NCBI GenBank assembly: GCA_016861205.1
Contig: BOKX01000001.1
Span: 8,539 to 72,538 of the forward strand
Direction of reading: 5' to 3'
Source of the DNA: Patescibacteria group bacterium
GTDB lineage: Bacteria > Patescibacteriota > Microgenomatia > UBA1400 > PJMF01
Length of the DNA: 64,000 nucleotides
Notes under the pieces: generated by a model
The model's input: only the letters and a program-made list of their open reading frames with translations
Told to the model about the DNA's origin: nothing
The model's database searches: none
In this document: positions 15,500 through 54,740 of the stretch, piece by piece
How the letters are laid out: every line of letters begins with the position of its first letter
Numbering within the stretch: position 1 is the first letter of the stretch
Made by a program: the position numbers and the translations under genes

Positions 15500-15833
15500 T
15501 GGTGGGCACAGTTAAGTGATGGCCCCAAGCTCTCGAAGTTTGGGGAGGAAAGTCCGGACAGCAGGACAAAAGGTGCTTTGTCGAAAGGCAAAGGCTCCAC
15601 CTCGGTGGAGACAGTTAGAGCCACAGTGACGATGCGGGTGGCGCCGCGTGAAACGACCAAGCCTCTGGGTATCTCGCTTCGGCGAGAGGGTAATCCTCCC
15701 TGCTGCAACTGCCGAACTTCACCGTAATGGAGTTGTCCCCTTTTCCTCATTTTTAATGAGGTCGGTGATAAGGACGCAGGCATAGATAGATCATCACTCT
15801 CGACAGAATCTGGCTTATCGACTGTGCCCACTT
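15500..15833 (+). ncRNA. rnpB: RNase P RNA (bacterial type A)
   Basis: Conserved P4 strands GGAGGAAAGTCCGG (5' part) and ACAGAATCTGGCTTATCG (3' part). P1 is formed by GTGGGCACAGT (15502-15512) pairing with ACTGTGCCCAC (15821-15831). Confidence 0.88.
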
Positions 15834-32752: not shown

Positions 32753-32829
32753 TGGTGGGTGTACTACGAATCGAACGTAGGACCTCTGTCTTATCAGGAC
32801 AGCGCTCTAACCGTCTGAGCTATACACCC
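32753..32829 (-). tRNA. tRNA-Ile (anticodon GAT), CCA encoded
   Basis: Reverse complement GGGTGTATAGCTCAGACGGTTAGAGCGCTGTCCTGATAAGACAGAGGTCCTACGTTCGATTCGTAGTACACCCACCA. Perfect 7-bp acceptor stem, anticodon loop CTGATAA. Confidence 0.92.
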
Positions 32830-38068: not shown

Positions 38069-39545
<1,477 letters not shown>

Positions 39546-39920
39546 AAAAAAAGTTTGATTGCTCTATTTAAAAAAATTGTACGGATTTTCTGTCCATCGA
39601 AAGATGGTAGAAATTCCGACAATTCTAGATCCGAAGATCTAGAGTCCAGTTTCTACCACCATGTTCGTTTCAGATGATGTATGAATGTATATTCATACAT
39701 TTTTTCCTTAGTGAATGATGGTTAGCTGTCAAATTCACTAAGGTCTTAACTTGTTAACGATCATAGAAACTCATGCAAAAACCCCACTGGTGTTTCACCG
39801 GTGGTGCTATACTGAGTTTAAATCTGAGACTAGTTCCCGTGTGGGCTTGGTCCGAAGAAACATTATTCTAACAAAATTGAGCCAGATGTCAAAGGGAAGA
39901 ATTACAAGGAAAGGAAACCT

Positions 39921-41952: not shown

Positions 41953-42645
41953 CTACTTTAGGCCGATTCGTTCGGCAAAAACCAGTAGTCTTTTACTAGT
42001 AGTACCCGGTGGCCAACAGGTTTGCAGAACTATTGTTTCTGCGGAGTACTCTTGCTGTAAAAAGCTGACATCGTCGGGATTGACCACCTGACTGTGGGTC
42101 ACTCGGTACTCATAGCGTTGCTCATCGTGCCAAATAAACACTTCGTCATCAGGCTTGAGTTTGCCGAGCAAGTAAAACACGGCGTTGTACTGGAATCGCA
42201 AATCTGGACTCGATGAATGGGCAAAGTAGTACCCTAAGCCAGGATTATCAGGAATAGCTGTCCCGGAGGCCTGTGCGATTCCCTGGCGCAAAGCTTTGGT
42301 GTACTGGGCTTTGTTGTTTGGATCAACGTTAAAGATGACTGGTTCATCGAGTTGCAGCCGCGGAATAGTAATGCCATACGCTTGATGGCGGCTTTGGCCA
42401 CGTAGGTCAAGAATGCCTTCGAAGTTGGGAATAATCAGCTGTCGAATATCCTGGACGCCAAACACCCCACTGAGTACCTGTTGAAACTGATACTTAGTCT
42501 CTACGACGAGGACGGGAATGTACGTTAGGCTCAGCCAAGCCATGAACACCATGATCAAGGTAGCTGAAGTGATGGTGATAAACCAGTCAGAACTAATGAG
42601 GTGGCGAAGGTAAGTGCCTGCCGACTTGGGCCGTAAACCGGACAT
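41953..42645 (-). CDS. Sortase (transpeptidase)
   Basis: N-terminal TM anchor and catalytic-Cys block IVLQTCWPPGTTSKRLLVFAE (TLxTC-like). Adjacent to a cell-wall-sorting-signal protein. Confidence 0.75.
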   Translation of the reverse strand: MSGLRPKSAGTYLRHLISSDWFITITSATLIMVFMAWLSLTYIPVLVVETKYQFQQVLSGVFGVQDIRQLIIPNFEGILDLRGQSRHQAYGITIPRLQLDEPVIFNVDPNNKAQYTKALRQGIAQASGTAIPDNPGLGYYFAHSSSPDLRFQYNAVFYLLGKLKPDDEVFIWHDEQRYEYRVTHSQVVNPDDVSFLQQEYSAETIVLQTCWPPGTTSKRLLVFAERIGLK

Positions 42646-42654
42646 AGAGAAAGT

Positions 42655-43848
42655 TTAGCGAATCCAGCGCTTTTTAGCCATCTGGAGGCCAATTCCGGCC
42701 AATCCACTGCTTGCCCCAATCATCGAGATCACAGTTGGCATACCAGTGTCAGGCTGCTTTGTCAGTGGCTTAGTGTTGATGTAGATGGTTTTTTGACAGG
42801 TGTTGTCGCCCCCGCGCCATTGATCAGAGCTGTCTAAGACATAGGCTTTGACCGTGTAGGTGCCGGCAGTTTCGTAGCGTTGCTCGAAAGTTTGGCCATC
42901 ACTCTCTTTGGTGATACCGTTGCCAAAATCGAGTTTGTAGCGCTTCAGGTTACCCTTGTTGTCGTAACCAGTGACTTTGAAACTAACGGTACTAGGTGCT
43001 TGCGCATTGTTGCCTGCCGTTACGAATAGGTCACTACAGGCAGCTTTGTGTGACTCGACACTTGAGCTCTTGACCGTGACGCGAGTTTCACAGCTGCTGT
43101 TGGTTCGCCAGTTGCCTTGACTGTCTTTAACGTCGACTCGAGCCACGAACGAGCCAGAGGTTTCGTAGGTGTGTTGGATTTCGGCTTGGTCGGTTTCTTC
43201 TTGTTTGCCATCACCGAAGTAGTATTTGTAGCGTTGAATCGAACCTTTGTTGTCACTGGCTCGCGCACGCAGGGTGACTTTGGCGGGCACAGTTTGGTTG
43301 TCACCACCCACCACAGATAGCTGTTCACAGCGACTCTGGTGAGCTACGGTGGGAGTTGCTTTAACACTAGGTGTTGGCTGTGGAGTAGCAACTGGGGTTG
43401 GTTTTGGGGTAGCCACAGTCTCGGCTTTTTTGACACTGAGGTAGTCAGTGTTGCCGCAGTTGTTGATAGTGGCTGACTGACAAATAAAGCTGTAGCGCCC
43501 ATTTTCAGGTACGGTGTAACCGCGCAGTTCTGGTTGATTGCTGACGCGTTCTTTTTTGCCACTGGGTAGCCGGACTTCGATGTAGCCACCGAGCAAAGTT
43601 GACTTGCCGTTTTGGGCAAAACAGTTCACGTCAATGCGGTCCCCTACCTTGAGGCCAGCTTCGGTGATCTGGGCACCGTTAATCCAGGGCTTGTCGCCAG
43701 CAGTGCTGACACGGAACTGGGTATCGACTGGTTTGACACTTTGGCAGCTGGGGGCTGGGTCGGCACTGCTGTTTGCTGCCGAGCTGCCCTGGGGCAAAGC
43801 CAAGGTTAGAGCAAATAACGTTACGAGGATGAAGAAAATGCGACGCAT
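42655..43848 (-). CDS. Secreted surface protein with two PKD-like repeats and C-terminal sorting signal (QPDTG + TM + KKRWIR)
   Basis: Signal peptide present. Repeats YKYYFGDGKQEETDQAEIQHTYETSGSFVARVDVKDSQGNW and YKLDFGNGITKESDGQTFEQRYETAGTYTVKAYVLDSSDQW. C-terminal KQPDTG followed by a hydrophobic stretch and a basic tail. Confidence 0.65.
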   Translation of the reverse strand: MRRIFFILVTLFALTLALPQGSSAANSSADPAPSCQSVKPVDTQFRVSTAGDKPWINGAQITEAGLKVGDRIDVNCFAQNGKSTLLGGYIEVRLPSGKKERVSNQPELRGYTVPENGRYSFICQSATINNCGNTDYLSVKKAETVATPKPTPVATPQPTPSVKATPTVAHQSRCEQLSVVGGDNQTVPAKVTLRARASDNKGSIQRYKYYFGDGKQEETDQAEIQHTYETSGSFVARVDVKDSQGNWRTNSSCETRVTVKSSSVESHKAACSDLFVTAGNNAQAPSTVSFKVTGYDNKGNLKRYKLDFGNGITKESDGQTFEQRYETAGTYTVKAYVLDSSDQWRGGDNTCQKTIYINTKPLTKQPDTGMPTVISMIGASSGLAGIGLQMAKKRWIR

Positions 43849-43917: not shown

Positions 43918-45009
43918 TTACCCCACAATCACGCCCCCGCCTCGGCAGATCAGAGTTTCGCGTGGACCGCCCGCCTGGTAGATAACCGCCGACTGGCCTT
44001 CAGCTACGCCTTGTAGGGGTTGGCTAAACTGGACCTTGGTGCCAGTCAGGGTGGCTGGGATGAGTTGACCGGTGTGACGAATGCGGACCAAAACTGGTTG
44101 CTGCAAGTCTGGCTGACTAATCCAGTGCCAGGCTCTCACCTCGAGGTGGTCGCGGTAGGTTTCAGGTCCGAAGCCCACTACCAGCTGGTTGCTGGCTGGT
44201 TCTTTGCGGATGACGTAAAACGGTGGCAAAAGATGCTTGTTAACCTCTGTCCCATCTGGCTGAGTGACGACCAACTTGGAGTTAACGGTAAAACCGTGGC
44301 GTTGCCCAACGGTGTAAAACCACAGACCTTTGTGCTGGCCAATCACGTTGCCTTGGACGTCGACTACATCGCCAGGGTTTTCGCCGAGTCGGTCTTTTAG
44401 AAACTCATGGACATTGATGTCGCCAATAAAACAGATGCCGACTGAGTCTTTTTTGGCCGCAACACCCAAGCCTCGTTGTTCGGCTTCAGCCCGAACCTCT
44501 GGCTTTGTGAGATGGCCAATCGGAAACAGGGTGTGTTTAAGCTGTTCTCCACTCAGGACATGGAGGAAGTAGGTCTGATCTTTGTGAGTATCGGTGCTGG
44601 TCAGCAACTCGCCAGGAGCGGCTTGGTGGTCAACCTGGGCGTAGTGCCCAGTTGCGACATAGTCAAAACCATGAGCCATTGCCCAGTCGTAGAACAGGCC
44701 AAACTTAATTTCTTTGTTGCACATCACATCGGGATTTGGGGTGAAGCCTGCCTGATATTCGTTGAAAAAATACTCAACCACGCGTTGCCGGTAGGCATCT
44801 TTAAAGTCCAAGACCTGAAATGGGATATCGAGGCTCAAGGCTACTTTCAAAGCGTCTTGCCGATCGGCATCGGTTCGGCAACCTGGGGCGCGCCAGCACT
44901 CGAGATACACGCCAGTCACGTCGTACCCCTGGTCGACGAGCAAATGAGCTGAGAGTGATGAGTCTACCCCACCGGACATACCGAGGGCGACCCGTGGTCG
45001 TGATGACAT
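43918..45009 (-). CDS. mnmA: tRNA-specific 2-thiouridylase MnmA
   Basis: PP-loop SGGVDSS, MnmA blocks (CNKEIKFGLFYDWA; QTYFLHVLS), and the C-terminal beta-barrel. Start at MSSRPRVAL. Confidence 0.9.
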   Translation of the reverse strand: MSSRPRVALGMSGGVDSSLSAHLLVDQGYDVTGVYLECWRAPGCRTDADRQDALKVALSLDIPFQVLDFKDAYRQRVVEYFFNEYQAGFTPNPDVMCNKEIKFGLFYDWAMAHGFDYVATGHYAQVDHQAAPGELLTSTDTHKDQTYFLHVLSGEQLKHTLFPIGHLTKPEVRAEAEQRGLGVAAKKDSVGICFIGDINVHEFLKDRLGENPGDVVDVQGNVIGQHKGLWFYTVGQRHGFTVNSKLVVTQPDGTEVNKHLLPPFYVIRKEPASNQLVVGFGPETYRDHLEVRAWHWISQPDLQQPVLVRIRHTGQLIPATLTGTKVQFSQPLQGVAEGQSAVIYQAGGPRETLICRGGGVIVG

Positions 45010-45038: not shown

Positions 45039-45824
45039 TTATAGCGGATAGGTCAGTGAAATAAAAGGACACGCCTCGGTGGCGAATCGAGCCACTTCCC
45101 AGGTGCCAGTCCAGTTGGTTGGTGTCAGGGCATATAGTGCCCACTGTGGACCGGTGGCCAGCGTGCTTTGAGCGTAAAACACAACGGTGCCGTCCTCGCC
45201 GAGAGGCACTTCGGAACTCAAGGGTGTTTTGCTCCCAAAAGAAGGTTGATAGCCAAATCGAAGTTTGTAGTCCAGATAGCCAAGAGTGTTAACTACGCCG
45301 AAGGCGTTGCGCGACTGTCCGGCTGATAACAGTTGGATGCCCCGCTGGTGCATCTCGCGCAGGAAGAGATAGTCGATCACTGCCCCGAGTGAGGAGTTGG
45401 CAGTGTTCGTCAAATCCAGGCGATCGGTGGCTTTGAAGGCAAAGGTGGCTTTTTCGGTGCCGTTGACGGCAAAAATCCCCGACCCCACCAACTTGCCCTG
45501 CTGATACATGAGGAGGCCCAACACTTTTTGTCCAAGCGCCGTTTTTTTGGCAAACCACTCCTGGCTAGCAATCACGTCGTACTGGTTCTCCAACATTTTT
45601 TGCTGATAGTACTCCAGCCAGCTGCCAAACTGCTCAGCCGAAAGTTCCTCCAGAGTCCAGGTGATTTGTTTGGCGGCCAACAGCTCATCCACATTGGACA
45701 GGAACTTGCGCAAACCCTTGCTCAGGATGTGCGGGGTCACACTTTCGTCAGGAGTGAGACTGGGAAATCGCCAGCGAATTTTCTCTGGTCGGGTCAGATG
45801 GTACGGCTCTAGGTTGACGGTCAT
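45039..45824 (-). CDS. Hypothetical protein, possibly FemAB/CelD-like GNAT-fold (Acetyltransf_6-like)
   Basis: 261 aa. The C-terminal block LGAVIDYLFLREMHQRGIQLLSAGQSRNAFGVVNTLGYLDYKLRFGYQP weakly resembles the FDFGRGDE.YKERFGA signature of the Acetyltransf_6 family. Its start overlaps the stop of the upstream ATP-grasp gene by 4 nt. Confidence 0.3.
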   Translation of the reverse strand: MTVNLEPYHLTRPEKIRWRFPSLTPDESVTPHILSKGLRKFLSNVDELLAAKQITWTLEELSAEQFGSWLEYYQQKMLENQYDVIASQEWFAKKTALGQKVLGLLMYQQGKLVGSGIFAVNGTEKATFAFKATDRLDLTNTANSSLGAVIDYLFLREMHQRGIQLLSAGQSRNAFGVVNTLGYLDYKLRFGYQPSFGSKTPLSSEVPLGEDGTVVFYAQSTLATGPQWALYALTPTNWTGTWEVARFATEACPFISLTYPL

Positions 45825-46855
45825 ACTTTCTCAAGCTCTGGAAACATCTGGTACAACAAAACCTGAGCCACGTTGCGAGCGGGGCCCTTCATGGGGTAGT
45901 GGTGGATGCTGTAGTGGGGGCCAGCGTTGACTTCGATGACGAAGTTTTTGACCGTGCTTTGATCAGCTGTTAGGTCCTCAGTCATGAAGTCGAGACCAGC
46001 GAATGGTAACTCGGGTATGGCTTGGATGGCTTTGAGGGCAATTTCCTTGACTGAAGGGTGTGCCTCGTCAGTTAGGTCAACGCTGTCGCCGCCTTGTGAT
46101 AAGTTGGACACCAGTTTCAGAAACACTTGTCTTCCTGCCTCAAGTACACTGTCAGCTGTCAGGTTCTGTTGTTTAAGTAACTCGAGCGAGTCTTCTTTCA
46201 ACATAACGTGAGGGTAGGGATCGTCGTGTTTGGGGTTGATGTTGCGCAAAGGATCTTGGTTTTTGATCTCGATCAGTTCGGCAATGGTATGCTGGCCATC
46301 CCCCACTACGTTGGCTGGAATCCGAGCCATGATTGCCAGGACTTTGTCAGGTGTTAACGTAATCCGATACTCGTCGCCACTGACTTGTTTTTCGAGCAAA
46401 AAGCCTTGGTCAAGATTGATGGCAGCCTGTCGAACGGTTGGTAAGTGTTTGGCAACATCGTCACGGTTTTGCAGGTTGGTATACACGGCACTGCCGTTAT
46501 TGCCATGGGAAGACTTCAAGACGACTGGATAGCCCAAGGCATCAGCCGCTGCCAAAACTTGGTCATCAGTGGCCTCTTGCGAAAAATGCTGGCCGTCGGC
46601 AATCGTGACACCCGCTTCCTGCAGAAACGTGCGAGTGATGCGCTTGTCCAGACAAGCATAGTACGAGACAAACGTGGTGTTGGCTGAAAACCCACCAAAG
46701 AAAAACCGCTTCTTGCCTTGATAAGTCAGCTCAAATAAGCGACTGCTGTCGATTTGCCGCCAGCTGACGCCGTGTTTTTCGGCCTCTTCGAGCATGACGC
46801 GTTCTTTAGTGCTGATATTTTCTTCATTTCTGAACTGCATGGCACTCATAGTCAC
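45821..46855 (-). CDS. ATP-grasp ligase resembling the N-terminal (Asp-adding) module of cyanophycin synthetase CphA (paralog 2)
   Basis: Blocks YPVVLKSSHGNNGSAVY, PANVVGDGQHTIAELIEIKNQDPLR, ANLSQGG, and the C-terminal VIEVNAGPHYSIHHYPMKGPARNVAQ. Compare CphA PAHVTGDGTSTITELIDKTNQDP / VIVEVNAAPGFRMHVAPSQGLPRNVA. 4-nt overlap with the next gene. Confidence 0.7.
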   Translation of the reverse strand: MTMSAMQFRNEENISTKERVMLEEAEKHGVSWRQIDSSRLFELTYQGKKRFFFGGFSANTTFVSYYACLDKRITRTFLQEAGVTIADGQHFSQEATDDQVLAAADALGYPVVLKSSHGNNGSAVYTNLQNRDDVAKHLPTVRQAAINLDQGFLLEKQVSGDEYRITLTPDKVLAIMARIPANVVGDGQHTIAELIEIKNQDPLRNINPKHDDPYPHVMLKEDSLELLKQQNLTADSVLEAGRQVFLKLVSNLSQGGDSVDLTDEAHPSVKEIALKAIQAIPELPFAGLDFMTEDLTADQSTVKNFVIEVNAGPHYSIHHYPMKGPARNVAQVLLYQMFPELEKV

Positions 46856-47835
46856 TTCACTTTCTGTTCAATCATTTCTAGAATCGCCGAGGCAACATCT
46901 CGGGGCTGACCTTGAATAGGATAGTGGTGCATTCTCAGGCCGGGTGAAGCGTTGACTTCAATGACTCCAGCGCGAGTTTGATTGACAATTGGGGTGGTTA
47001 AGTCCTGACACATGATGTCGATACCGATCACATTCAGGTCGCAGGCTCGAGCGATGGTTTCAAACAAAGTCTTGTTTTCTGGGCAGACCTGGTCGGTTAC
47101 ATCCCAGGCTTCGCCGCCGGTGGACAGATTGGCAGTTTTGCGCAGAGCCACCTCTTGGCCTGGGGGGACAACTGCCTCAAGCTCCAATTTCTGGTCGGCC
47201 AGATTTTGACGAACGGTGTCATCAACTTCAATTAAGGTTAGGTTGTAGGTGTGACCTTTACCGCGCCAGGGGTGTTGGTTTTTGATCTCGATTAGTTCGG
47301 CAATCGTGTGTTCTCCGTCCCCGACCACATGGGCTGGTTTGCGAAATGCCACTGCGACTAGCTGGTAGTCGACACAGACTACCCGATACTCAGTCCCCTG
47401 GAGCATTTCTTCACAGATCGACTCTGGTTGCTGTTGCCCTAGCCAGAGTTCGCGGACCGCCGCCGCGTCGGCTACGCCGACGCTGACGTCTTTCCCGTGG
47501 CGACCACCGACTGGTTTGACCACTACCGGGAACTGAAGTTGAGACAACTGGTCAAAATCCGCTTCCGACTTGATCAACACAAATGGCGCCGTGGGCAACT
47601 GAAAGTGGCTTAGGACGAGCTTGGTGAGTGGTTTGTAGTCAGCGATAGTTTTGCCGACTGAGGACTGCCAACTGGTTCTCGAGCCACGGGTGTACCATTG
47701 GTGGCCGTTTTTTGACATCAGGATTGTTTGGCGATCGCCCAACAACTGACACTCGATACCACGCTTGGCCGCGGTTTCAGCCATGATGCGGGAGCTGGCT
47801 TCCAAGGGTGGGCGGTTGGTGGTGGTTTCAGACAT
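46852..47835 (-). CDS. ATP-grasp ligase resembling the N-terminal module of cyanophycin synthetase CphA (paralog 1)
   Basis: FPVVVKPVGGRHGKDV, PAHVVGDGEHTIAELIEIKNQHPWRGKGH, ANLSTGG, GVIEVNASPGLRMHHYPIQGQPRDVASAILEMI. Shares the identical HTIAELIEIKNQ stretch with its neighbour. 8-nt overlap with the upstream DUF1704 gene. Confidence 0.72.
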   Translation of the reverse strand: MSETTTNRPPLEASSRIMAETAAKRGIECQLLGDRQTILMSKNGHQWYTRGSRTSWQSSVGKTIADYKPLTKLVLSHFQLPTAPFVLIKSEADFDQLSQLQFPVVVKPVGGRHGKDVSVGVADAAAVRELWLGQQQPESICEEMLQGTEYRVVCVDYQLVAVAFRKPAHVVGDGEHTIAELIEIKNQHPWRGKGHTYNLTLIEVDDTVRQNLADQKLELEAVVPPGQEVALRKTANLSTGGEAWDVTDQVCPENKTLFETIARACDLNVIGIDIMCQDLTTPIVNQTRAGVIEVNASPGLRMHHYPIQGQPRDVASAILEMIEQKVK

Positions 47836-48790
47836 GAGGCACTTCCTCTATCACTTGATGAAATTGATTTTTGACACCGATTTCATAGATACCTTGACGA
47901 TACTTGGCTAGGTCATCAAAGAAACTAGGATACAACAACTGCTTAGTTTCGGCTGTGGGGGCATATTTGTCAATCTCCTCGAGACTAATCCGACCCAAGT
48001 AGAGGTGATAGGGATTGTGAGACTCATCTTGGAGCCAGTGCCAGATCTGTAAACAACCCTCGAGGTAGCAAATATCCTTAGTTGGACCACCGGGCTGGGA
48101 TGTGTCTGTCAAACCGCGTTTTGCCCGCAGTGTATGAAGCCAAGACATGCGTTCACTGATGCCCAAAGCGCGAAGCTGGGCATAGGTCTCAGTAAATGAG
48201 TACCGCTGCGCCAGCCAGGTGGTGAGGTATGTTCGAAAGGTTTTGCGCATGTAACGGCCGCTAAACAGGTTGGTATGAAGGCCGGCCAAGCCTTCTTCAG
48301 TACGGCGGAAATGGTCGTCAGCCGCTGTGTAATCCGGCCAGTTTTGGAGTTGATGATTATGAATGCGCAGGTAATGCGTTTCGAGTTCATGGCGGTACAC
48401 ACCTTGGAACTCGAGAGGTGAGTAGATCAGGGGCAGCCGAAACTCGATCTTATCAGGTGAAACTCGACACTGTGTGACCATTTGGTCAGTAAAAACGACT
48501 TTGAGCGGCTCTTTCAGCCGATAGGCGTGATTAAACTGGTCGATCGCTTCTCGAATACTGGCTTGGGTGACAATTTCAGTCTTTGGTTTCCAGGGGTCAA
48601 CTGTATTGATGTGAATGATCATTTCTCGAGCAAACTCGGCCAACCGGTCCTTAGGGAGTCCCCAGGCATGCAGTTGATCGGTTGCGATGTTCTGTCGGTA
48701 GGTAAACTGGGGATTATAGGTTTGGTCGGCCAAAAAATGGTTGTACTCTTCAACCAAGTTAGTGGGTGTCAGGTGCGAAATAATCTGCAT
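47828..48790 (-). CDS. DUF1704 'QEGLA-motif' family protein, putative metallocarboxypeptidase (MATCAP-like)
   Basis: HExxxH-type motif HELETHYLR followed by the family-typical EEGLA (RRTEEGLAGLHTNLF). 320 aa, a length typical for the family. 1-nt overlap with the upstream ATP-grasp gene. Confidence 0.6.
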   Translation of the reverse strand: MQIISHLTPTNLVEEYNHFLADQTYNPQFTYRQNIATDQLHAWGLPKDRLAEFAREMIIHINTVDPWKPKTEIVTQASIREAIDQFNHAYRLKEPLKVVFTDQMVTQCRVSPDKIEFRLPLIYSPLEFQGVYRHELETHYLRIHNHQLQNWPDYTAADDHFRRTEEGLAGLHTNLFSGRYMRKTFRTYLTTWLAQRYSFTETYAQLRALGISERMSWLHTLRAKRGLTDTSQPGGPTKDICYLEGCLQIWHWLQDESHNPYHLYLGRISLEEIDKYAPTAETKQLLYPSFFDDLAKYRQGIYEIGVKNQFHQVIEEVPHV

Positions 48791-50073
48791 TAACTCACGT
48801 CTCCAACCAAGAAACCGCTCAGGTCGTTACGCCCGATTTCCAGCTGATACTTGCTGCGGTTTAATGACTTCGAGACTACCATACTGGTACTCTGTTTGCG
48901 ACCTTTGAGCCGGAAGGACACTTGGACCACCGGTGCGCGGCCCTCCTCTTTTTCTGGTTGGTACCATAGAAAGTCATCAAGATCGATCAAGCCTAGTTTT
49001 TTGGCCAAGTCGCTAGAAATACAGCTGCGAAAACGACCGGTGTTAACGAGGGCCATGGTTTCTTCTTTGATTTGTTGATCGCCGTAAACGAGTACTTCTT
49101 CAAACGGCTTGATGATGGTCAAGCCGTCCTCGGCTTTGATTTTGTCGGAAAACTTTTCAGCAAACAAAGCCTGTCCAATCCGGACTCCATGGTCTGGATT
49201 TAAGACATTCAAATCTTGGACCCGCTCCAGCCGACGGCGCAAGCCTGCCCGGTTGGCAATTTGGATCGATAACCCTGGATTGGCGTTCAACTCAACTACC
49301 ATGGGGCCCTGCTCTTCGTGAATGAACAGGTCGATGGCGCAGTACATCAGGCCAGCCGCGTCAGCGGTCTTAACGGCGATAGTGAGGACGTCTTTCCAGT
49401 GCGGAATGCGAAAGCCACTCAATTTTTTCTTGGTGCCAGGCAGATATTGAATGGGAGTCCCTTTACCAATAATCGCGTGAGTTGTTACGCCCGTGGCCAT
49501 ATCAATGCCGACACCGATCGCACCTTGATCGAGGTTTGCTCGGCCACCAGACTCTTCAGTGGGAATGCGGATGTACGACATGATCGGGACGTGATTGAAA
49601 ACAATGACCCGCACGTCGGGCGTGCCCTTGGTGGTGTACTTGTAAAACGTGCCGTGAATTGGAACGCGCTCCTCAACAATGACATGGTGGTTAACGCCAT
49701 ACGTGCTGTACTGACCTTCTAAAATATCAAAGCAGTGAAACTTGATCTCATCCAAACTCCACACCTTGCCTAAAGTGTCCACCCAGTGTTGCTTGTCATT
49801 TTGCTGGGTTTTGAAGATCAACACTCCTTTACCGGCGTTGCCGTTGGTAGGTTTGATGACGAAGTTTTTCTCTAGGTGTTCCCACTCGAATTGGTTCACG
49901 TCTTCGTAGGTCGTCAAAATGGCAAAAATTTTGGCGGTCGGAATATGCTTGTTTTCGAGCAAGACTTTGGTGGCGTACTTGGAGGCGCAAAACTGACGAG
50001 CTGTGGCCGAGTTCAGCTTGCCGTAGATGAGCTGGCGGGCGTTCATGCCCAGAATGTCGCGTGCTTTAGGCAT
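48790..50073 (-). CDS. RimK-type 'alpha-L-glutamate ligase-like' ATP-grasp enzyme fused to a C-terminal retropepsin-like (DUF785/Zn_protease-type) domain
   Basis: N-terminal ~310 aa: GMNARQLIY...KYATKVLLENKHIPTAKIFAI, FVIKPTNGNAGKGVLIF, DVRVIVFNHVPIMSYIRIPTEESGGRANLDQGAIGVGIDMATG, MVVELNANPGLSIQIANRAGL. These match my recollection of the TIGR02291/RimK-related family. C-terminal ~110 aa: ALVNTGRFRSCISSDLAKKLGL...VVQVSFRL...LEIGRNDLSGFLVGD, resembling the AKIDTGA.TS..RPVI..LLGR..L block pattern of DUF785. Confidence 0.65.
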   Translation of the reverse strand: MPKARDILGMNARQLIYGKLNSATARQFCASKYATKVLLENKHIPTAKIFAILTTYEDVNQFEWEHLEKNFVIKPTNGNAGKGVLIFKTQQNDKQHWVDTLGKVWSLDEIKFHCFDILEGQYSTYGVNHHVIVEERVPIHGTFYKYTTKGTPDVRVIVFNHVPIMSYIRIPTEESGGRANLDQGAIGVGIDMATGVTTHAIIGKGTPIQYLPGTKKKLSGFRIPHWKDVLTIAVKTADAAGLMYCAIDLFIHEEQGPMVVELNANPGLSIQIANRAGLRRRLERVQDLNVLNPDHGVRIGQALFAEKFSDKIKAEDGLTIIKPFEEVLVYGDQQIKEETMALVNTGRFRSCISSDLAKKLGLIDLDDFLWYQPEKEEGRAPVVQVSFRLKGRKQSTSMVVSKSLNRSKYQLEIGRNDLSGFLVGDVS

Positions 50074-50084
50074 AGCCGTACTCT

Positions 50085-51068
50085 TTACTCTTCAATAATT
50101 GACTTGAAGCGCAGCCATTCTAGTAAGCGTAAACCGGTGTACCGACCGACCACAATGTTGATTGCTGCCACGCCCAGCAAGGTCAGTTCTGGTTGCAAAA
50201 TGACGCCTTTTTGGACGAACTCGGAACCAACGACAATAGAACATAGCACCGCCGTGATCAACGTTTCAAAGGTCAACTGGAGGGTTGCGGACTGGCTACT
50301 GGTGAGCTGCGACTCCATAAAGTTTTCTGTTAATAGCATGATGATCAGCAACGGGAAGATGCTAATACCAGCGATGAAGTTACCGGGTAGGTAGACTGAA
50401 GAAATCAGCGCCAGTAACACCACAATTGAGACTCCCCAGAGCAACAAGGCAGTCCGAGGTAAGTAGTGCAGTTTCAGGCGTTTGAGAATTTGGCGAGCGG
50501 TCAAAGCAGCCAATAAGGTGATCATGAACAGCACAATGCCGTTGATAATCCCCGTCGAGACAAACGCAACCGATAGCACCGCTGGAATGTAAATGCCGAA
50601 GCCTTTCATGCCAATGATGTGGCGGGTGAACGAAATGAAGGCGGCAATCACTGGGAACAACAGGACTAACACCACGATGTTGGCTGGCAACCCGCGGTTG
50701 ATAGCTTCTCGGATAGGATGTTGTAAGAAGTTATGCCAACTCAAGGGGCCGATGGGGTTTTCATCCAGCCAAGCAGCTAGCTTGCTTTTCTGAGGCGCAG
50801 TGGACTGAGTAATGTCCTTATCCTGTTTCTCTTGAATCCTTTGTTCCAGTTGAGCCGAAATTGACGCTAACTGTGCCGATAGGCTGGCCTCGCCGCTTTG
50901 GGTAGCCACTTCCGCGCTCAAAGTCGCGTCGGTAGCTGGTGAAGGACTGGCTGAGGCAGCACGAAGTTGGGACACAGTTTGGGCGGTGACGAGTGTGGGG
51001 TGGGTGGCGCTAGCTACCCAGGCGAACAGGCTCAATGCCAGCAGTCCCCAAATAAAGTGGCGAATCAT
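50085..51068 (-). CDS. Secreted-N-terminus multi-TM membrane protein (possible 7TM partner of RimK-like ATP-grasp systems)
   Basis: Signal peptide (MIRHFIWGLLALSLFAWVASA), ~100 aa Ser/Ala/Gln-rich extracytoplasmic segment, then 6-7 TM helices. Stops 11 bp upstream of the ATP-grasp fusion gene. Confidence 0.45.
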   Translation of the reverse strand: MIRHFIWGLLALSLFAWVASATHPTLVTAQTVSQLRAASASPSPATDATLSAEVATQSGEASLSAQLASISAQLEQRIQEKQDKDITQSTAPQKSKLAAWLDENPIGPLSWHNFLQHPIREAINRGLPANIVVLVLLFPVIAAFISFTRHIIGMKGFGIYIPAVLSVAFVSTGIINGIVLFMITLLAALTARQILKRLKLHYLPRTALLLWGVSIVVLLALISSVYLPGNFIAGISIFPLLIIMLLTENFMESQLTSSQSATLQLTFETLITAVLCSIVVGSEFVQKGVILQPELTLLGVAAINIVVGRYTGLRLLEWLRFKSIIEE

Positions 51069-51113
51069 AACGTGTATTATACTCCTTCGCTTAATGCTCC
51101 AGATGGCCAGCGT

Positions 51114-51482
51114 TTATAAAATAAACCCAACAATTGACTGTAAGAAGCTGATTAAAAATGAGGCAAACAGCAGCGAGAAAAACTGGTTGAGTTGCACGCC
51201 GCCCACGGTCATTTCAGTGATTCTAAAGCCTGGTACTAAGTACATCGCCAACCATAGAATGAGGACATTTAGGACGAGTGAAAAGAAACCCAACGTAATG
51301 ATGTTGATGGGTAAAAACAAGAGGCTCAAGATTGGTTTGACGAACTTTTGCAGGACCGTTAAAACAAGACCAGCCAAAACTAACGCCGTCCAGTTGGCAT
51401 AATCGATTGTCGGTAGCAACCAACTGAGAATCGCAATGGTGACGGTTGTTGAAATGATCGGTTTGAGTAAGTTAAGTGTCAT
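51114..51482 (-). CDS. Phage holin family IV-like (DUF360) small membrane protein
   Basis: 122 aa with four TM helices and the characteristic ..LVPGFRI.. turn (LAMYLVPGFRITEMTVGG). No phage genes nearby. Confidence 0.5.
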   Translation of the reverse strand: MTLNLLKPIISTTVTIAILSWLLPTIDYANWTALVLAGLVLTVLQKFVKPILSLLFLPINIITLGFFSLVLNVLILWLAMYLVPGFRITEMTVGGVQLNQFFSLLFASFLISFLQSIVGFIL

Positions 51483-51574
51483 GGCGGCCGTTGGTCAGTG
51501 ACTACCATGGTACAGCCGAGCCACTAGGCTGTAAAGTTTTGGTCAAGTGACTGCCTCATAGCGAGCTCGGAGTT

Positions 51575-52984
51575 TTAGGTGAACATCTGATTCAACCGGC
51601 GTCGCGACTGTTGTCGTTTAGAGAAACGGTGTGCTTCGTCCCGAAGCTGTTGAATCAACTTTAGGCCAGGATGTGTCTCGGGTAGTCGCAAAACGTGGTA
51701 ACGTGGCACGCTGCCCAGTTGGTAATCCTTTAAAGAACGCTTAGGACTCGGTTGGGAAATCAACTCGGGACCAGGGATGATTAATCGATCAGGGTCCTTG
51801 GCAATACTGATGACAGGAGTTGTCCACTGCCAGACCTTCAGAGCAGCACGTAACTGGCCTTTGCCACCGTCGATCACAATCAGGTCGGGTTGACCCCATT
51901 CGGGGTGATTTTGGCGGCGTTGCAGGGCTTCCTGGAGCATAGCGAAGTCATTTGGTGTGTCCAGAGTGCGAATGTTAAAGACTTTGTACTCTTGGTTGGC
52001 TGCCTGACCGTCAATGAATGTAACCATCGAGACAGCTGCGTAGGTGCCACTGATGTTGCTGACGTCATAAGCTTCGATGCGGTGCAGTGGGAAGGTGGCT
52101 GGCAAACTCAGGTAGGTTGAGAGCATTTTTCGCAAGTACACGACACCCTCCTCGGCTTGTGATGCCCGGAGGTGCGGTAGTGTTAAATCAGGTCGTAGTG
52201 AGTATGTTCGTTGGGTGACGGCGGTGATGACTTCTACTCGGTCTCGTAGGGTGGCAGCTAGTTCGTACTGTTCTTGTTCTGACGCGAGCTTCATTTGTTG
52301 CGAAATCATCCGGACCACATCTTTTTTTTGACCTTTGAGGAACATGACCAGTTGTGCAATGGTTTGCTGGTACTCTTCTGGAGTAACGCGACCGATACAG
52401 GCACCTGGACACTGACTGATGTGGTAGAAGAAACACGGTCGGGAGTTGGGTTTGGCTGGATCGACACCTTCGTTGCACCAGGGGAAAATCTTGCGAGCAA
52501 TTCCTAAGACTTCCCTCACTTTGTAGGCACTGGGGAAAGGTCCCAGGAGTGTCCCCTTCATCGGTCGAGTTTCGGTTTCTTTCTTACGTCGAGTTAACAC
52601 TCTGGGGTAGGGTTCGGCCGTGATCTGGATGTAGAGCGGGGTTTTATCGTCTTTGAGCAAGATGTTGGTCGGTGGTTGGTGTGTGCGAATGAGCTCAGCC
52701 TCGACAAGCAAAGCTTCAAGCTCACTATCGAGCACCTGCCACTTAAGCTGCTGGGCAGTCTCGACCATGCCGCGAATGCGGCTGCTGAGCTGGTTCACTT
52801 GGCGATAGGTGTTAACGCGATTTTTGAGATTTTTGGCTTTACCGACGTAAAGAACTTGGTTAGCGCCGTCGAGAAACCAGTATACCCCCGGTTGCGAGGG
52901 CAACTGCCGCGCCGCCGACTCCCAGGCCAATGAGGAAGCCTCGGTTGGTGAAGTAACTGATGAAGGCTGGGGCGAGTTGGGCAT
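51575..52984 (-). CDS. uvrC: Excinuclease ABC subunit C (short form lacking the C-terminal HhH domain; start uncertain)
   Basis: GIY-YIG (QPGVYWFLD..LYVGKAKNLKNR), Cys-rich region, UVR domain (EQYELAATLRDR), and the endonuclease domain (IEAYDVSNISG, IDGGKGQ). 469 aa against ~600 aa typical. The annotated start overlaps the upstream ORF by ~125 bp. Confidence 0.8.
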   Translation of the reverse strand: MPNSPQPSSVTSPTEASSLAWESAARQLPSQPGVYWFLDGANQVLYVGKAKNLKNRVNTYRQVNQLSSRIRGMVETAQQLKWQVLDSELEALLVEAELIRTHQPPTNILLKDDKTPLYIQITAEPYPRVLTRRKKETETRPMKGTLLGPFPSAYKVREVLGIARKIFPWCNEGVDPAKPNSRPCFFYHISQCPGACIGRVTPEEYQQTIAQLVMFLKGQKKDVVRMISQQMKLASEQEQYELAATLRDRVEVITAVTQRTYSLRPDLTLPHLRASQAEEGVVYLRKMLSTYLSLPATFPLHRIEAYDVSNISGTYAAVSMVTFIDGQAANQEYKVFNIRTLDTPNDFAMLQEALQRRQNHPEWGQPDLIVIDGGKGQLRAALKVWQWTTPVISIAKDPDRLIIPGPELISQPSPKRSLKDYQLGSVPRYHVLRLPETHPGLKLIQQLRDEAHRFSKRQQSRRRLNQMFT

Positions 52985-54740
52985 GCGTGTCGGTGATTAA
53001 TTTGGCTTGGTAATTTTGTAGTTGCATTGTAACCTGAACAGCTGAGGTCGTGGGCCAGAGTTCATCAGGGTTGATGGCTACCAACGGCAGCCGTTGGGTT
53101 TGATATGGTAACACTACCGGCAAGGTTTTTTCTGCTACGGTCACTTTTTGTCCGCCAAGTACCGCGGTGACGCTGGCTCTGGCTCCATACCATGCAGAAC
53201 CAGTTTGGTTAACAACTTCAAGCTCGAGCCAACCAGGAATAGATATGCCCCAGATTTTTTTGGGGACAATTCTGACTTCTAGATCTGGCTCTGTTTCAGG
53301 AAATGTGGTGCCAAAATCAACACTGACATCTTTGGTGTTTTGGTCAGTTAACTTGTATGAACCTGCTGGATACGGCAAAGTACTGGACTGACCGTTGATG
53401 GCAAACACAATGTGGTTGAGATCAAACTGGTCGAAGTAGTTCACTCCCCCGGTGGTGTTGCCCCAGGTGGGATCGATTGGTCGCCACTGGTTTGTTTGGT
53501 AATCATAGTACTCAGGCCAAGCGTGCAAAATATCCTCTACTAAACTGAGTGGGCGCAGCGCGCTATTTTCGGTATGGGCATAGCCTGTTAATCGACGTGT
53601 GGGAACTTGATTTGCTCGAGCGAGAGCAATAAACGTGTCAGTAAACTCTTGGCAGTTGACGTTGGCTGGGCTGGCCAAGGTAGTAACTGCCCCTAGGCGA
53701 GTCGGTGTTCCTTGGGTGGGGTCAAAACCATAGCTTAAGGTGTTAACGACGTAGTCATACATGGCTCGAGGGGTGTGGTGCTCGCTAGCGACTTGTTGGA
53801 CGGCAGGCTGATCACTCTCCCAGTAGGTTTGTGCTTGCAAGAGGCTCGAGCTTGGTTCGGCTACTGGAATGGTGAGATCTGGCTCCAGCGTGAGTTTAGC
53901 TTGGGCAGTGGCGTAGACGATTGTTTCAGAGGCAGCCGGAAGTTGGTACGTTGCAATCCAGTTGCCATCTGGGTCTGCTTCGATTTTTTGCGGCAAAGGG
54001 TCGAGTTGTGAGTAGTGCAGTTTTTGGTAAGGCGTATCTGGGGGCAAGGCAATTTGCATCAAGCCCGGACCGTTGGTAGTGTTTTCCAAGTTGTAACGCA
54101 GCGTCAGGTTAAAAACTTGTTCTGAGCCAAATAAAGCTGCGACACCGGTACTGCCCACCTGGGAAAAATGGGTGATGATCTGGTTGTCTTGATTTTCCAC
54201 CAAAGTAGGATCGGGGGTGACTCGAACAGGCTGGCCGTATTGACTGGGAGTTCTGAGGGTGACTGAGTAGCGGTCGTAAGTTTGTTCAGTACTGAGGGCA
54301 GGTACATATAACTCAAGCACTTTGCCACTAACTACACTGGCATCCTCTTGGTCATAGATAATTTTGATGGTTCGAGTTTTGCCCTCGCCGACCACTTTAT
54401 CGGGAAACGTCAGGCCAACGCTGGTCAGATGGTCGGTTTTGACCACGTTGGGCTGAATGACTTGGTCGTCGCTGGTGACGCGGACATTTTTAATGTCAGT
54501 CCCAGAGGTAATCTTGAGCGCGTATTGTCGGACGTACAGCGTCGGAGTTTTGTTTGTGATGTGAATTTGGTGTTCAACAGTCGTGTTTTTAATGCCGGTC
54601 ACGGTGTACGTACTGTCGAGAGTGAAGCTGAAGTTGGAGTCGGCTTGGGCTGGTTGGAGTGGTGGGATGATGGCCAGGGTAACTAGGAAGAGTATCCAAG
54701 TCACCACAGTTTTGAATAGAAATTGAAGCGGCTTTCTCAC
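52860..54740 (-). CDS. Secreted transglutaminase-like (papain-fold) protein with C-terminal TM anchor
   Basis: Signal peptide. Transglutaminase-core Cys block NCQEFTDTFIALARANQVPTRRLTGYAH followed by HAWPEYYD (His/Asp candidates). C-terminal GLGVGGAAVALATGGILVSRRR anchor. Confidence 0.6.
   Translation of the reverse strand: MRKPLQFLFKTVVTWILFLVTLAIIPPLQPAQADSNFSFTLDSTYTVTGIKNTTVEHQIHITNKTPTLYVRQYALKITSGTDIKNVRVTSDDQVIQPNVVKTDHLTSVGLTFPDKVVGEGKTRTIKIIYDQEDASVVSGKVLELYVPALSTEQTYDRYSVTLRTPSQYGQPVRVTPDPTLVENQDNQIITHFSQVGSTGVAALFGSEQVFNLTLRYNLENTTNGPGLMQIALPPDTPYQKLHYSQLDPLPQKIEADPDGNWIATYQLPAASETIVYATAQAKLTLEPDLTIPVAEPSSSLLQAQTYWESDQPAVQQVASEHHTPRAMYDYVVNTLSYGFDPTQGTPTRLGAVTTLASPANVNCQEFTDTFIALARANQVPTRRLTGYAHTENSALRPLSLVEDILHAWPEYYDYQTNQWRPIDPTWGNTTGGVNYFDQFDLNHIVFAINGQSSTLPYPAGSYKLTDQNTKDVSVDFGTTFPETEPDLEVRIVPKKIWGISIPGWLELEVVNQTGSAWYGARASVTAVLGGQKVTVAEKTLPVVLPYQTQRLPLVAINPDELWPTTSAVQVTMQLQNYQAKLITDTHAQLAPAFISYFTNRGFLIGLGVGGAAVALATGGILVSRRR

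Follow-up and report, generated by a model that had tools for sequence, protein, structure and literature searches.

A conserved patescibacterial operon combining an RloB-like membrane protein, an RloC-like ATP-grasp ligase and a predicted MATCAP-type carboxypeptidase: a putative relative of the Rlo and Rim systems

Rlo systems are of clinical importance in Pseudomonas and Vibrio, affecting osmotic tolerance, beta-lactam sensitivity and biofilm, and an operon of this type was reportedly predicted earlier, by Iyer et al. in 2009. In the rloABC system of Pseudomonas aeruginosa, RloA is a secreted retropepsin-like protease that cleaves poly-Glu, RloB consists of an inactive transglutaminase and seven transmembrane (TM) helices, and RloC is a cytoplasmic ATP-grasp enzyme (Lormand et al., mBio 2025, PMC12239564). 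The loss of rloB or rloC suppressed the hypo-osmotic lethality of the protease-less mutant of P. aeruginosa, and RloB was reported to be 96% proteobacterial (PMC12239564). Here we describe a related locus in a stretch of 64,000 nucleotides (nt) from a Patescibacteria group bacterium (GenBank assembly GCA_016861205.1, contig BOKX01000001.1, positions 8,539 to 72,538 of the forward strand), which is called the window below and to which all positions refer. The locus consists of seven adjoining open reading frames (ORFs) on the minus strand at 45039-51482, named G1 to G7 in the order of transcription. The sequence comparisons indicate that the operon is real and widely conserved in bacteria of the candidate phyla radiation (CPR), and that it is a relative of the Rlo and Rim systems in which a MATCAP-type carboxypeptidase is predicted to replace a dead retropepsin. 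We propose with moderate confidence that it represents a patescibacterial (Microgenomates-type) elaboration of the Rlo/Rim "add-and-trim" ATP-grasp systems.

An earlier annotation of the window made from its letters alone (the sequence-only reading) had considered this combination of genes to be uncharacterised, and thereby overlooked rloABC as the closest known system (PMC12239564) and RimK/RimB as a further relative. As in Rlo, co-directional neighbouring genes code for a 7TM_transglut protein, an ATP-grasp ligase closest to TIGR02291 and a retropepsin-like domain of the PF05618 type. The two systems nevertheless differ in their architecture. The G2 protein of the window is devoid of the inactive transglutaminase ectodomain, and the retropepsin is fused to the cytoplasmic ligase, whereas Rlo has a separate secreted DTG protease with a signal peptide. 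Furthermore, the catalytic Asp is replaced by Asn in the lineage of the window, the locus also contains a predicted metallocarboxypeptidase of the MATCAP type and as many as four extra ligases, and the host phylum is Patescibacteria. The RimK/RimB(/RimA) system for poly-glutamylation of the ribosomal protein S6 (PMC11957791; 5zct, 7qys) likewise combines an ATP-grasp alpha-L-Glu ligase with a cytoplasmic retropepsin-like trimming protease, its acceptor is a protein C-terminus ending in Glu-Glu, and RimK was among the best structural matches of G3. It differs in that G3 reached only 59 bits with the RimK family model (TIGR00768), below the cut-off of 143.4, and in that a seven-transmembrane (7TM) partner is present here.

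The tubulin tail cycle (TTL/TTLL and MATCAP/TMCP; 7z5g; PMC10499314) also pairs an ATP-grasp ligase with an HExxxH/EEG carboxypeptidase, and the candidate acceptor tail of the present locus is similarly acidic and ends in EE. In contrast, G3 does not belong to the TTL family (PF03133 was not matched by G3), no tubulin is involved, and the pairing here is operon-encoded with an activity that is predicted. Literature searches combining DUF1704, QEGLA or MATCAP with ATP-grasp yielded no description of an ATP-grasp/MATCAP operon or of the present CPR system. In Photobacterium damselae, the adjacent genes A0J47_RS17020 and A0J47_RS17025, which code for an ATP-grasp protein annotated as GshB and a QEGLA/MATCAP-like protein, were induced by low salinity (38- and 27-fold, respectively), as was RimK (52-fold) (PMC10308900). 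Therefore, ATP-grasp and MATCAP-like genes are also neighbours in at least one genome outside the CPR, that of a gammaproteobacterium.

The ORF listing gave the seven minus-strand genes exactly where the sequence-only reading had placed them. The overlaps of 1-8 nt that it had described were confirmed as well (G3/G4 1 nt, G4/G5 8 nt, G5/G6 4 nt and G6/G7 4 nt), and its domain calls (holin-like, ATP-grasp, retropepsin-like, DUF1704 and Fem/GNAT-like) were borne out by profile and fold searches. The gaps between G2 and G3, G1 and G2, and UvrC and G1 were 11, 45 and 92 nt, respectively. The gene arrangement is far beyond chance, and the same order was observed in dozens of related genomes.

The invariant part of the system was determined by comparative genomics. 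More than 4500 homologues of G3 were found, with relatives in at least 555 GTDB species genomes; the relatives with informative names were Patescibacteria, such as Pacebacteria, Woesebacteria and Microgenomates. The ORFs of 84 loci (numbered with the prefix L) were called and classified in a simple manner using phmmer and family hidden Markov models (HMMs). In 80 loci the G2 and G3 genes were direct neighbours (median gap 5 nt), also where none of the flanking genes was the same. Additionally, an unannotated ORF of 584 amino acids (aa) on the plasmid CP007061.1 of Halobacterium sp. DL1 (L090:5167-6921, ~106.1-107.8 kb) was found to combine 7TM_transglut (residues 51-243) and ATPgrasp_ST (residues 286-557) in one polypeptide, which was 37.8% identical to G3. 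Because the adjacency survives a change of flanks and a single fused polypeptide occurs in Halobacterium sp. DL1, there is strong evidence that G2 and G3 are directly coupled and that the invariant core is G2+G3. Thus, the one functional unit proposed by the sequence-only reading stood as far as the tight coupling of the genes and the universal G2 and G3 are concerned; G4 turned out to be clade-specific, G5-G7 variable, and G1 to follow synteny. The neighbourhood conservation that it had put up for checking held for the G2-G3 pair, and for the accessory genes in a part of the loci. The Halobacterium fusion ORF adjoins transposases. Many contigs of metagenome-assembled genomes carrying the locus (within L005-L084) are titled "uncultured Pseudomonadales/Gammaproteobacteria bacterium", "Vitreimonas sp." or "Limisphaerales", and a complete genome (CP011212, L029) is titled candidate division TM6; these labels look wrong or like placeholders.

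The G2 gene (50085-51068, minus strand) encodes an RloB-like 7TM membrane protein of 327 aa, which matched PF14402 (7TM_transglut) with an E-value of 2.3e-24 and 86.7 bits (cut-off 25). It covered only positions 315-507 of the 508 positions of the NCBIfam RloB model, that is, the 7TM part. The N-terminus is signal-peptide-like and is followed by a low-complexity ectodomain of ~100 aa; no transglutaminase domain was matched in the first ~130 residues by profile searches. Seven TM segments are located at residues ~130-315 and precede a cytoplasmic tail (...GRYTGLRLLEWLRFKSIIEE). G2 was 25% identical to the 7TM part of Aeromonas RloB (E 1e-15), and both proteins have in common a terminal motif G-x-Y-x-G-x-[RK]-L-x-E-x-x-RF. 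From the number of TM segments, the positive-inside loops and the archaeal fusion, in which the 7TM part is joined to the ligase, we infer that the C-terminus of G2 is cytoplasmic.

The G3 gene (48790-50073, minus strand) encodes a protein of 427 aa with an RloC-like ATP-grasp part (residues ~1-300) and a C-terminal retropepsin-like domain. The former matched PF14397 with 9e-59 and 199 bits, while the best NCBIfam match was TIGR02291 (5.8e-68, 229 bits), under its trusted cut-off of 314. A Legionella plasmid and an Aeromonas record were found to carry canonical rloABC loci, and G3 was 33-34% identical to the RloC ligases of both. G3 is nearer to the RloC type than to RimK, the type named by the sequence-only reading. 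Foldseek with the whole G3 model returned ATP-grasp matches only, at the top ArgX/LysX (3vpb, E 2e-9) and RimK, with E-values of 2e-9 to 1e-7. The ArgX/LysX and RimK enzymes ligate an amino acid onto the C-terminal Glu of a partner protein. The window locus differs from the LysX/ArgX-LysW systems in having neither a LysW-like carrier nor genes of lysine or arginine biosynthesis. The Mg/ATP motif E261-L-N263 of G3 was invariant among the orthologues. On plasmid 5 of Legionella adelaidensis, an rloA-type retropepsin (L088:3981-4439; PF05618, 76.8 bits) is annotated as "RimK/LysX family protein", which is misleading.

The degenerate retropepsin-like domain of G3 (residues ~318-427; 48793-49122, minus strand) gave no significant Pfam match on its own, including PF05618, for which the sequence-only reading had asked; the best was gag-asp_proteas with an E-value of 0.17. 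The alignment A3 was built of the C-terminal domains of G3 from the window and 28 other loci. In this alignment, the window motif A-L-V-N344-T-G-R-F-R-S (N344 codon 49042-49044) corresponds to K-I-D-T-G-A-W-R-S of the active relatives. The most distant clade (basal, Woesebacteria-type), the ligases of which are 44% identical, bears the retropepsin signature K-[IV]-D-T-G-A-W-R-[ST]-S-I. The retropepsin domain of this clade matched Aeromonas RloA (E 4e-7), and the orthologous C-terminal domain of L072 matched PF05618 with 31.3 bits (cut-off 27). The best PDB matches of the A3 profile were 9g59 (PF05618-type, "ATP-dependent zinc protease domain"; E 0.014) and the retropepsin DDI1 (E 0.18). The catalytic position is occupied by N, H or K across the clade of the window, and by D only in the basal clade and two DTGR loci. 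Since the catalytic Asp is replaced by Asn (N344), the C-terminal domain of G3, which the sequence-only reading had correctly recognised as a retropepsin homologue, is almost certainly dead as an aspartic protease. The Arg residues kept, and even gained, at the NTGRFRS cleft suggest that acidic peptides continue to be bound.

A predicted zinc carboxypeptidase of the MATCAP/TMCP family (DUF1704, 320 aa) is encoded by G4 (47828-48790, minus strand). PF08014 (MATCAP), proposed by the sequence-only reading, was matched with 2e-23 and 83.3 bits (cut-off 27). TIGR02421 ("QEGLA motif protein"), proposed alongside it, was reached with 70.9 bits only, under the cut-off of 338.65, which places G4 in the same superfamily and another orthologue group. 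The alignment of G4 with human MATCAP 7z5g covered the complete catalytic domain (E 6.8e-27), with RHELETHYLR aligned to RHEIGTHYLR, and TEEGLA to TEEGLA. The residues of HExxxH (H134-E135-L-E-T-H139; 48374-48391) and EEG (E165-E166-G167; 48290-48298) are the metal and catalytic residues of MATCAP/TMCP, the members of which take single residues off acidic C-terminal tails (PMC10499314). H134, E135, H139, E165 and E166 were invariant in all 53 G4 orthologues. With its active-site residues intact, G4 is predicted to be a competent zinc carboxypeptidase. A tblastn search of the plasmid collection with G4 gave no match.

Further, the occurrence of peptidases was compared among 76 loci with enough downstream sequence. 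A MATCAP gene followed the ligase in 51 of the 60 Asp-less loci versus one of the 16 Asp-keeping loci, and none was present within 10 kb in the 15 others of the latter. Four Asp-less NTGR loci without MATCAP (L010, L012, L022 and L027) had a stand-alone DTGA retropepsin of 119-143 aa at the same position; the two that were scanned, those of L010 and L027, matched PF05618 with ~45 bits. As these four loci are scattered in a rough neighbour-joining tree of G3, the swap to a stand-alone retropepsin seems to have happened several times. No peptidase was located nearby in five NTKR/NTRR loci. Given that the DTGA lineages almost never have MATCAP and that four NTGR loci refill the slot with a retropepsin, the trimming peptidases look interchangeable, be it a fused active retropepsin, a stand-alone retropepsin or MATCAP. 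The only locus of the DTGA clade with MATCAP was L071. Longer MATCAP paralogues with an extra N-terminal region were found in L003 (11288-12598, 437 aa) and L071 (11312-12739, 475 aa), and L003 has two MATCAP genes with a G7-like gene between them.

The last eight residues of the G2 tail (residues 320-327; 50088-50111, minus strand) are RFKSIIEE. Among the G2 orthologues, 49 of 82 ended in E and 33 of 82 in EE. In the background set, made of the ORFs in these loci that code for 200 aa or more, these endings occurred in 88 of 782 (11%) and 7 of 782 (0.9%) ORFs, respectively. The endings of the orthologues included IIEEEE, SQEEE, GLEE, DDQSE and DPEE. A Glu ending of G2 was recorded in 44 of the 60 loci with an Asp-less ligase, compared to none of the 16 DTG loci. 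Because it is Glu-ended and the nearest structures of G3 act on a C-terminal Glu, the G2 tail is a candidate acceptor, or a candidate docking peptide for the NTGR cleft; a candidate acceptor peptide for the predicted G3 ligase is LEWLRFKSIIEE. In the loci with CphA-like ligases, the genome-encoded 7TM tails tended to be less acidic (a mean of 1.8 versus 2.9 acidic residues in the last six; Mann-Whitney p 0.026), a weak trend that was not used as evidence since the loci are phylogenetically non-independent. The G3 orthologues ended in Glu in 29 of 81 cases (...LVGENE, ...LVGDE) versus the same 11% of the background, while G3 of the window ends in ...GDVS; these endings could hint at self-modification or be compositional.

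The three genes downstream of G4 code for predicted accessory ligases. G5 (46852-47835, minus strand; 327 aa) and G6 (45821-46855, minus strand; 344 aa) are stand-alone ATP-grasp proteins resembling the G domain of cyanophycin synthetase. Against TIGR02068 (cyanophycin synthetase), G5 scored 1e-93 and 315 bits over model positions 156-470, and G6 5e-75 and 253 bits over positions 150-474. G5 also matched residues 152-462 of CphA1 7lgn with an E-value of 1e-56. Thus, the homology of G5 and G6 to CphA1 (7lgn, 7lg5, 7wac) extends over its whole ATP-grasp G domain (residues ~150-475), and the CphA relationship noticed by the sequence-only reading was upheld, with the G domain instead of the N domain as the similar part. 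In contrast to CphA1, they are ~330 aa long versus ~900 aa and are devoid of the N and MurE-like M domains. Being without these domains and well below the cut-off of 850 bits, they were rejected as cyanophycin synthetases. Ddl, GshB, PurK and carboxylase identities, the housekeeping families whose assignment to the ATP-grasp ORFs would have spoken against the sequence-only reading, were discarded on scores far under the cut-offs. G5 and G6 were 31% identical (E 2e-42), and G6 appears to be an old paralogue of G5. The G5 orthologues are ~320 aa long and patescibacterial; the name "cyanophycin synthetase" given to them by the Joint Genome Institute (JGI) is misleading.

The best fold matches of G7 (45039-45824, minus strand; 261 aa) were FemX (4ii9, 6snr), FemA (1lrz), MprF (6lv0), Sbb17 (9wqx) and ATE1, from which a GNAT fold of the Fem/MprF type was assigned. 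G7 is shorter than the Fem-type transferases, its identity to these structures was only 6-15%, and it had no match to FemAB or any other Pfam or NCBIfam model at E <= 0.01. By inspection, it is also without the canonical coenzyme A (CoA)-binding motif Q/RxxGxG/A. G7 is probably a fourth amide-bond-forming enzyme. The three ligases that had been described beside two peptide-hydrolysing domains were recovered together with a probable fourth one, and one of the two peptidases is predicted to be catalytically dead (N344). The family of G7 is very small: it made up 311 clusters out of 1.84 billion representatives. A G7 domain is joined to the C-terminus of ATP-grasp_3 in two proteins of 776-795 aa (P0254 and P0278). 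P0262 is likewise a G7-like/ATP-grasp_3 fusion, and the fused proteins span 554-795 aa. In two very long proteins, P0293 (1778 aa) and P0309 (1707 aa), a G7-like domain lies near the N-terminus and no Pfam matches were found.

CphA-like ligases were present in 14 of the 44 MATCAP loci (1-3 copies) and G7 in five of the 44 (1-2 copies). Directly after the core, other lineages have other ATP-grasp families (CphA-like, RimK-type, R2K or ATP-grasp_3). The DTGA clade has two RimK-type ligases with 95-113 bits to PF08443, L032 has an R2K-type ligase, and a 486-aa ATP-grasp_3 protein is encoded in L066 and L084, the latter with a homologue of G7 behind it. We proposed that G5-G7 are lineage-specific accessories which probably act in the same pathway as the core.

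The following mechanism was proposed for the Rlo/Rim-like system. G2 would serve as the docking site for G3 on the cytoplasmic side of the membrane, where G3 would ligate amino acids to a C-terminal carboxylate. The amino acid added would most likely be L-Glu, alpha-linked as with RimK, and it would be joined either to the C-terminal -EE of G2 itself or to a free acidic peptide, which G2 would then export or hold. G4 would remove residues singly from the C-terminus and so take over the trimming role of the retropepsin, while the dead retropepsin domain may have survived as an acidic-tail binding or dimerisation module with its Arg-rich cleft (NTGRFRS) kept. G5 and G6, similar to the CphA G domain, and the Fem-like G7 would extend or diversify the peptide as lineage-specific extras. 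By analogy with Rlo, the physiological output may be envelope or osmotic homeostasis. The logic of adding and removing amino acids at the C-terminus of a peptide or protein, which the sequence-only reading had put forward, is the best reading of the locus, as G3 lies near RimK and LysX/ArgX and the predicted catalytic residues of G4 are complete.

It is also conceivable, though quite unlikely, that the 7TM partner is itself the target: the RloC-like ligase, joined by G5-G7 in the loci that have them, and the MATCAP-like peptidase would run a reversible "tail code" of amino acids at its cytoplasmic C-terminus (-EE), with the dead retropepsin reading or holding the tail. If true, such a code would be a bacterial membrane-protein counterpart, and possibly an evolutionary source, of the tubulin glutamylation and tyrosination-detyrosination cycle, and it would name a long-sought kind of substrate for Rlo-type systems.

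A number of observations weigh against the proposed elaboration of Rlo/Rim systems or limit its reach. The 7TM protein of the DTG loci ends in RKLIKG, RKLISN and similar basic or neutral sequences, the tails of canonical RloB are not Glu-ended, and the 7TM C-terminus is not free in the archaeal fusion protein. In view of this fusion and of the basic tails seen in the DTGA clade, tail modification with the tail as acceptor cannot be a universal mechanism. The system is not a canonical Rlo either, since G3 remains under the TIGR02291 cut-off and there is no transglutaminase and no secreted protease. G5-G7 were missing from 30 of the 44 MATCAP loci, and G7 was apart from any ATP-grasp gene in a Nomurabacteria genome. 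Few independent events underlie the clade-level correlations, for which the tree is a rough neighbour-joining one, and a part of the UvrA-TG-UvrC-...-MnmA-PKD-sortase synteny (TG, transglutaminase-core gene) may be plain gene order kept among relatives. The support for the locus is at the sequence level.

Other explanations were weighed against the same data. The locus may be made up of two independent abutting modules without a common substrate, namely an Rlo-like core G2-G4 and a separate small-peptide cassette G5-G7, the latter making a small product such as a di- or tripeptide, N-acylated or aminoacylated, in the manner of the osmolyte N-acetylglutaminylglutamine (NAGGN). We consider this possible but unlikely. 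It would fit the frequent absence and variable copy number of G5-G7 and the location of G7 away from the core in Nomurabacteria. Moreover, G5 and G6 matched the ATP-grasp half of N-acetylglutaminylglutamine synthetase (TIGR03103; 1.5e-47 and 2.5e-37), an enzyme that joins this half to a GNAT domain and thus echoes G5/G6 plus G7. However, the junctions from G4 to G7 overlap by 4-8 nt, the insertion point of the cassette is always directly after the peptidase, and other ATP-grasp families fill this slot elsewhere, even with unrelated flanks (L059, L067 and L072-L084); the fold of G7 is also nearer to aminoacyl-tRNA-dependent transferases than to acetyl-CoA GNATs, and the canonical CoA motif is missing. 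A tailoring of cell-envelope precursors is distinctly unlikely in our estimation. The ligases and the Fem-like transferase would act on a peptidoglycan stem or cross-bridge or on another lipid-linked polymer, with G4 as a cytoplasmic carboxypeptidase and G2 translocating or scaffolding the intermediate. FemX and FemA, the best structures for G7, build peptidoglycan cross-bridges, and PF14397 is named after its association with sugar-transfer genes. The cell-shape, beta-lactam and hypo-osmotic phenotypes of Rlo mutants suggest wall defects (PMC12239564), and a sortase and a PKD surface protein are encoded just downstream, but this proximity is general synteny that is absent at distant loci. In addition, there are no Mur, glycosyltransferase or flippase genes at the locus, the nearest structures of G3 act on a C-terminal Glu of a protein or peptide, and RloA cleaves poly-Glu, not a wall peptide.

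It is improbable that the product is a storage or osmo-buffering poly-amino-acid (for example, cyanophycin-like poly-Asp or poly-alpha-Glu), an option that the sequence-only reading had named; its polymerisation would take free Glu or Asp from the osmolyte pool, and the peptidase would set the amino acid free again. The G domain of CphA, to which G5 and G6 correspond in full length, elongates the poly-Asp backbone, RimK makes free poly-alpha-Glu, Rlo is needed under hypo-osmotic stress, and the low-salinity induction of RimK, the ATP-grasp and the QEGLA/MATCAP-like gene in Photobacterium points the same way (PMC10308900). Against such a polymer stand the missing N and M domains and low TIGR02068 scores of G5 and G6, their absence from most core-bearing loci, the 7TM partner, which is no feature of known polymer synthetases of this type, and the absence of a cyanophycinase. 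Finally, chance neighbours or an inherited gene order without any functional unit are highly improbable and disfavoured for the core. UvrA, TG, UvrC, MnmA, PKD and sortase are indeed kept as plain synteny among relatives, yet the G2-G3 adjacency outlasts a full turnover of flanks, G2 and G3 are found as a gene fusion, a different peptidase family refills the peptidase slot, and the coding regions overlap.

The elaboration of Rlo/Rim systems that we favour offers several handles on mechanism. The exchange of the trimming enzyme between a retropepsin and a MATCAP-type carboxypeptidase is a natural experiment, the ligase carries its own, presumably now inactive, peptide-binding protease domain, and the Glu-ended tail of the membrane partner co-varies. 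Taken together, the swap, the dead domain and the co-varying tail point to a C-terminal acidic peptide as the thing that is built and trimmed. An important function is implied by the presence of this minimal cytoplasmic variant in hundreds of tiny CPR genomes. Additionally, that bacteria encode an ATP-grasp and a MATCAP-family enzyme as a pair is relevant to how the tubulin tail-modifying enzymes of eukaryotes arose.

G1 (51114-51482, minus strand) encodes a four-TM membrane protein of 122 aa of the PF04020 (Phage_holin_4_2) family (6.9e-22, 78.5 bits). It was located upstream of G2 in the loci with UvrC synteny (UvrA-TG-UvrC block) and was absent wherever the G2-G3 pair had another context; in L004, a radical-SAM gene lies between G1 and G2. 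The membership of G1 in the system is uncertain, as it tracks the local UvrA-TG-UvrC synteny only, and a holin function is doubtful because there is no lysis gene or phage context. A consensus scan revealed a promoter-like site TTTACA-17-TACCAT at 51507-51535 (minus strand) in the gap between UvrC and G1. It is a possible operon promoter, with weak evidence, since 15 such sites were found in the region versus 7.6 expected. Terminator-like sites were at the chance level (16 found versus 13.4 expected) with no convincing one between the genes, and the Rfam scan detected no RNA element within or near the operon.

The operon is flanked by UvrC upstream of G1 and by MnmA downstream of G7. The start of MnmA is most likely the ATG at 45009, 29 nt past the stop of G7, versus that of a long GTG-start ORF overlapping G7. 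The transglutaminase-core gene at 52860-54740 (minus strand) was considered as a split-off RloB ectodomain and was rejected: UvrC separates it from G1, and the gene is absent where the G2-G3 pair sits elsewhere. It encodes a 626-aa membrane protein with a PF01841 core and stands between UvrA and UvrC in many relatives. By eye, the protein has Cys (NCQEF), His (HAWPEYY) and Asp (IDPT), which is curious since RloB carries an inactive transglutaminase, and the ORF runs 125 nt into the annotated start of UvrC. The genes downstream of MnmA code for a PKD-domain surface protein (41953-43848, minus strand), the C-terminus of which resembles a TM or sorting segment, and then for a sortase; this pair is kept in relatives.

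A full-length 16S rRNA gene lies at 38071-39551 (minus strand) and tRNA-Ile at 32753-32829 (minus strand). The ~5.2 kb between them contain three same-strand protein ORFs (186, 345 and 890 aa). The 23S rRNA gene is not present in the window, and the rRNA genes look unlinked. The class A RNase P RNA at 15504-15833 (plus strand) scored 105 bits against the Rfam gathering score of 100 and looks divergent.

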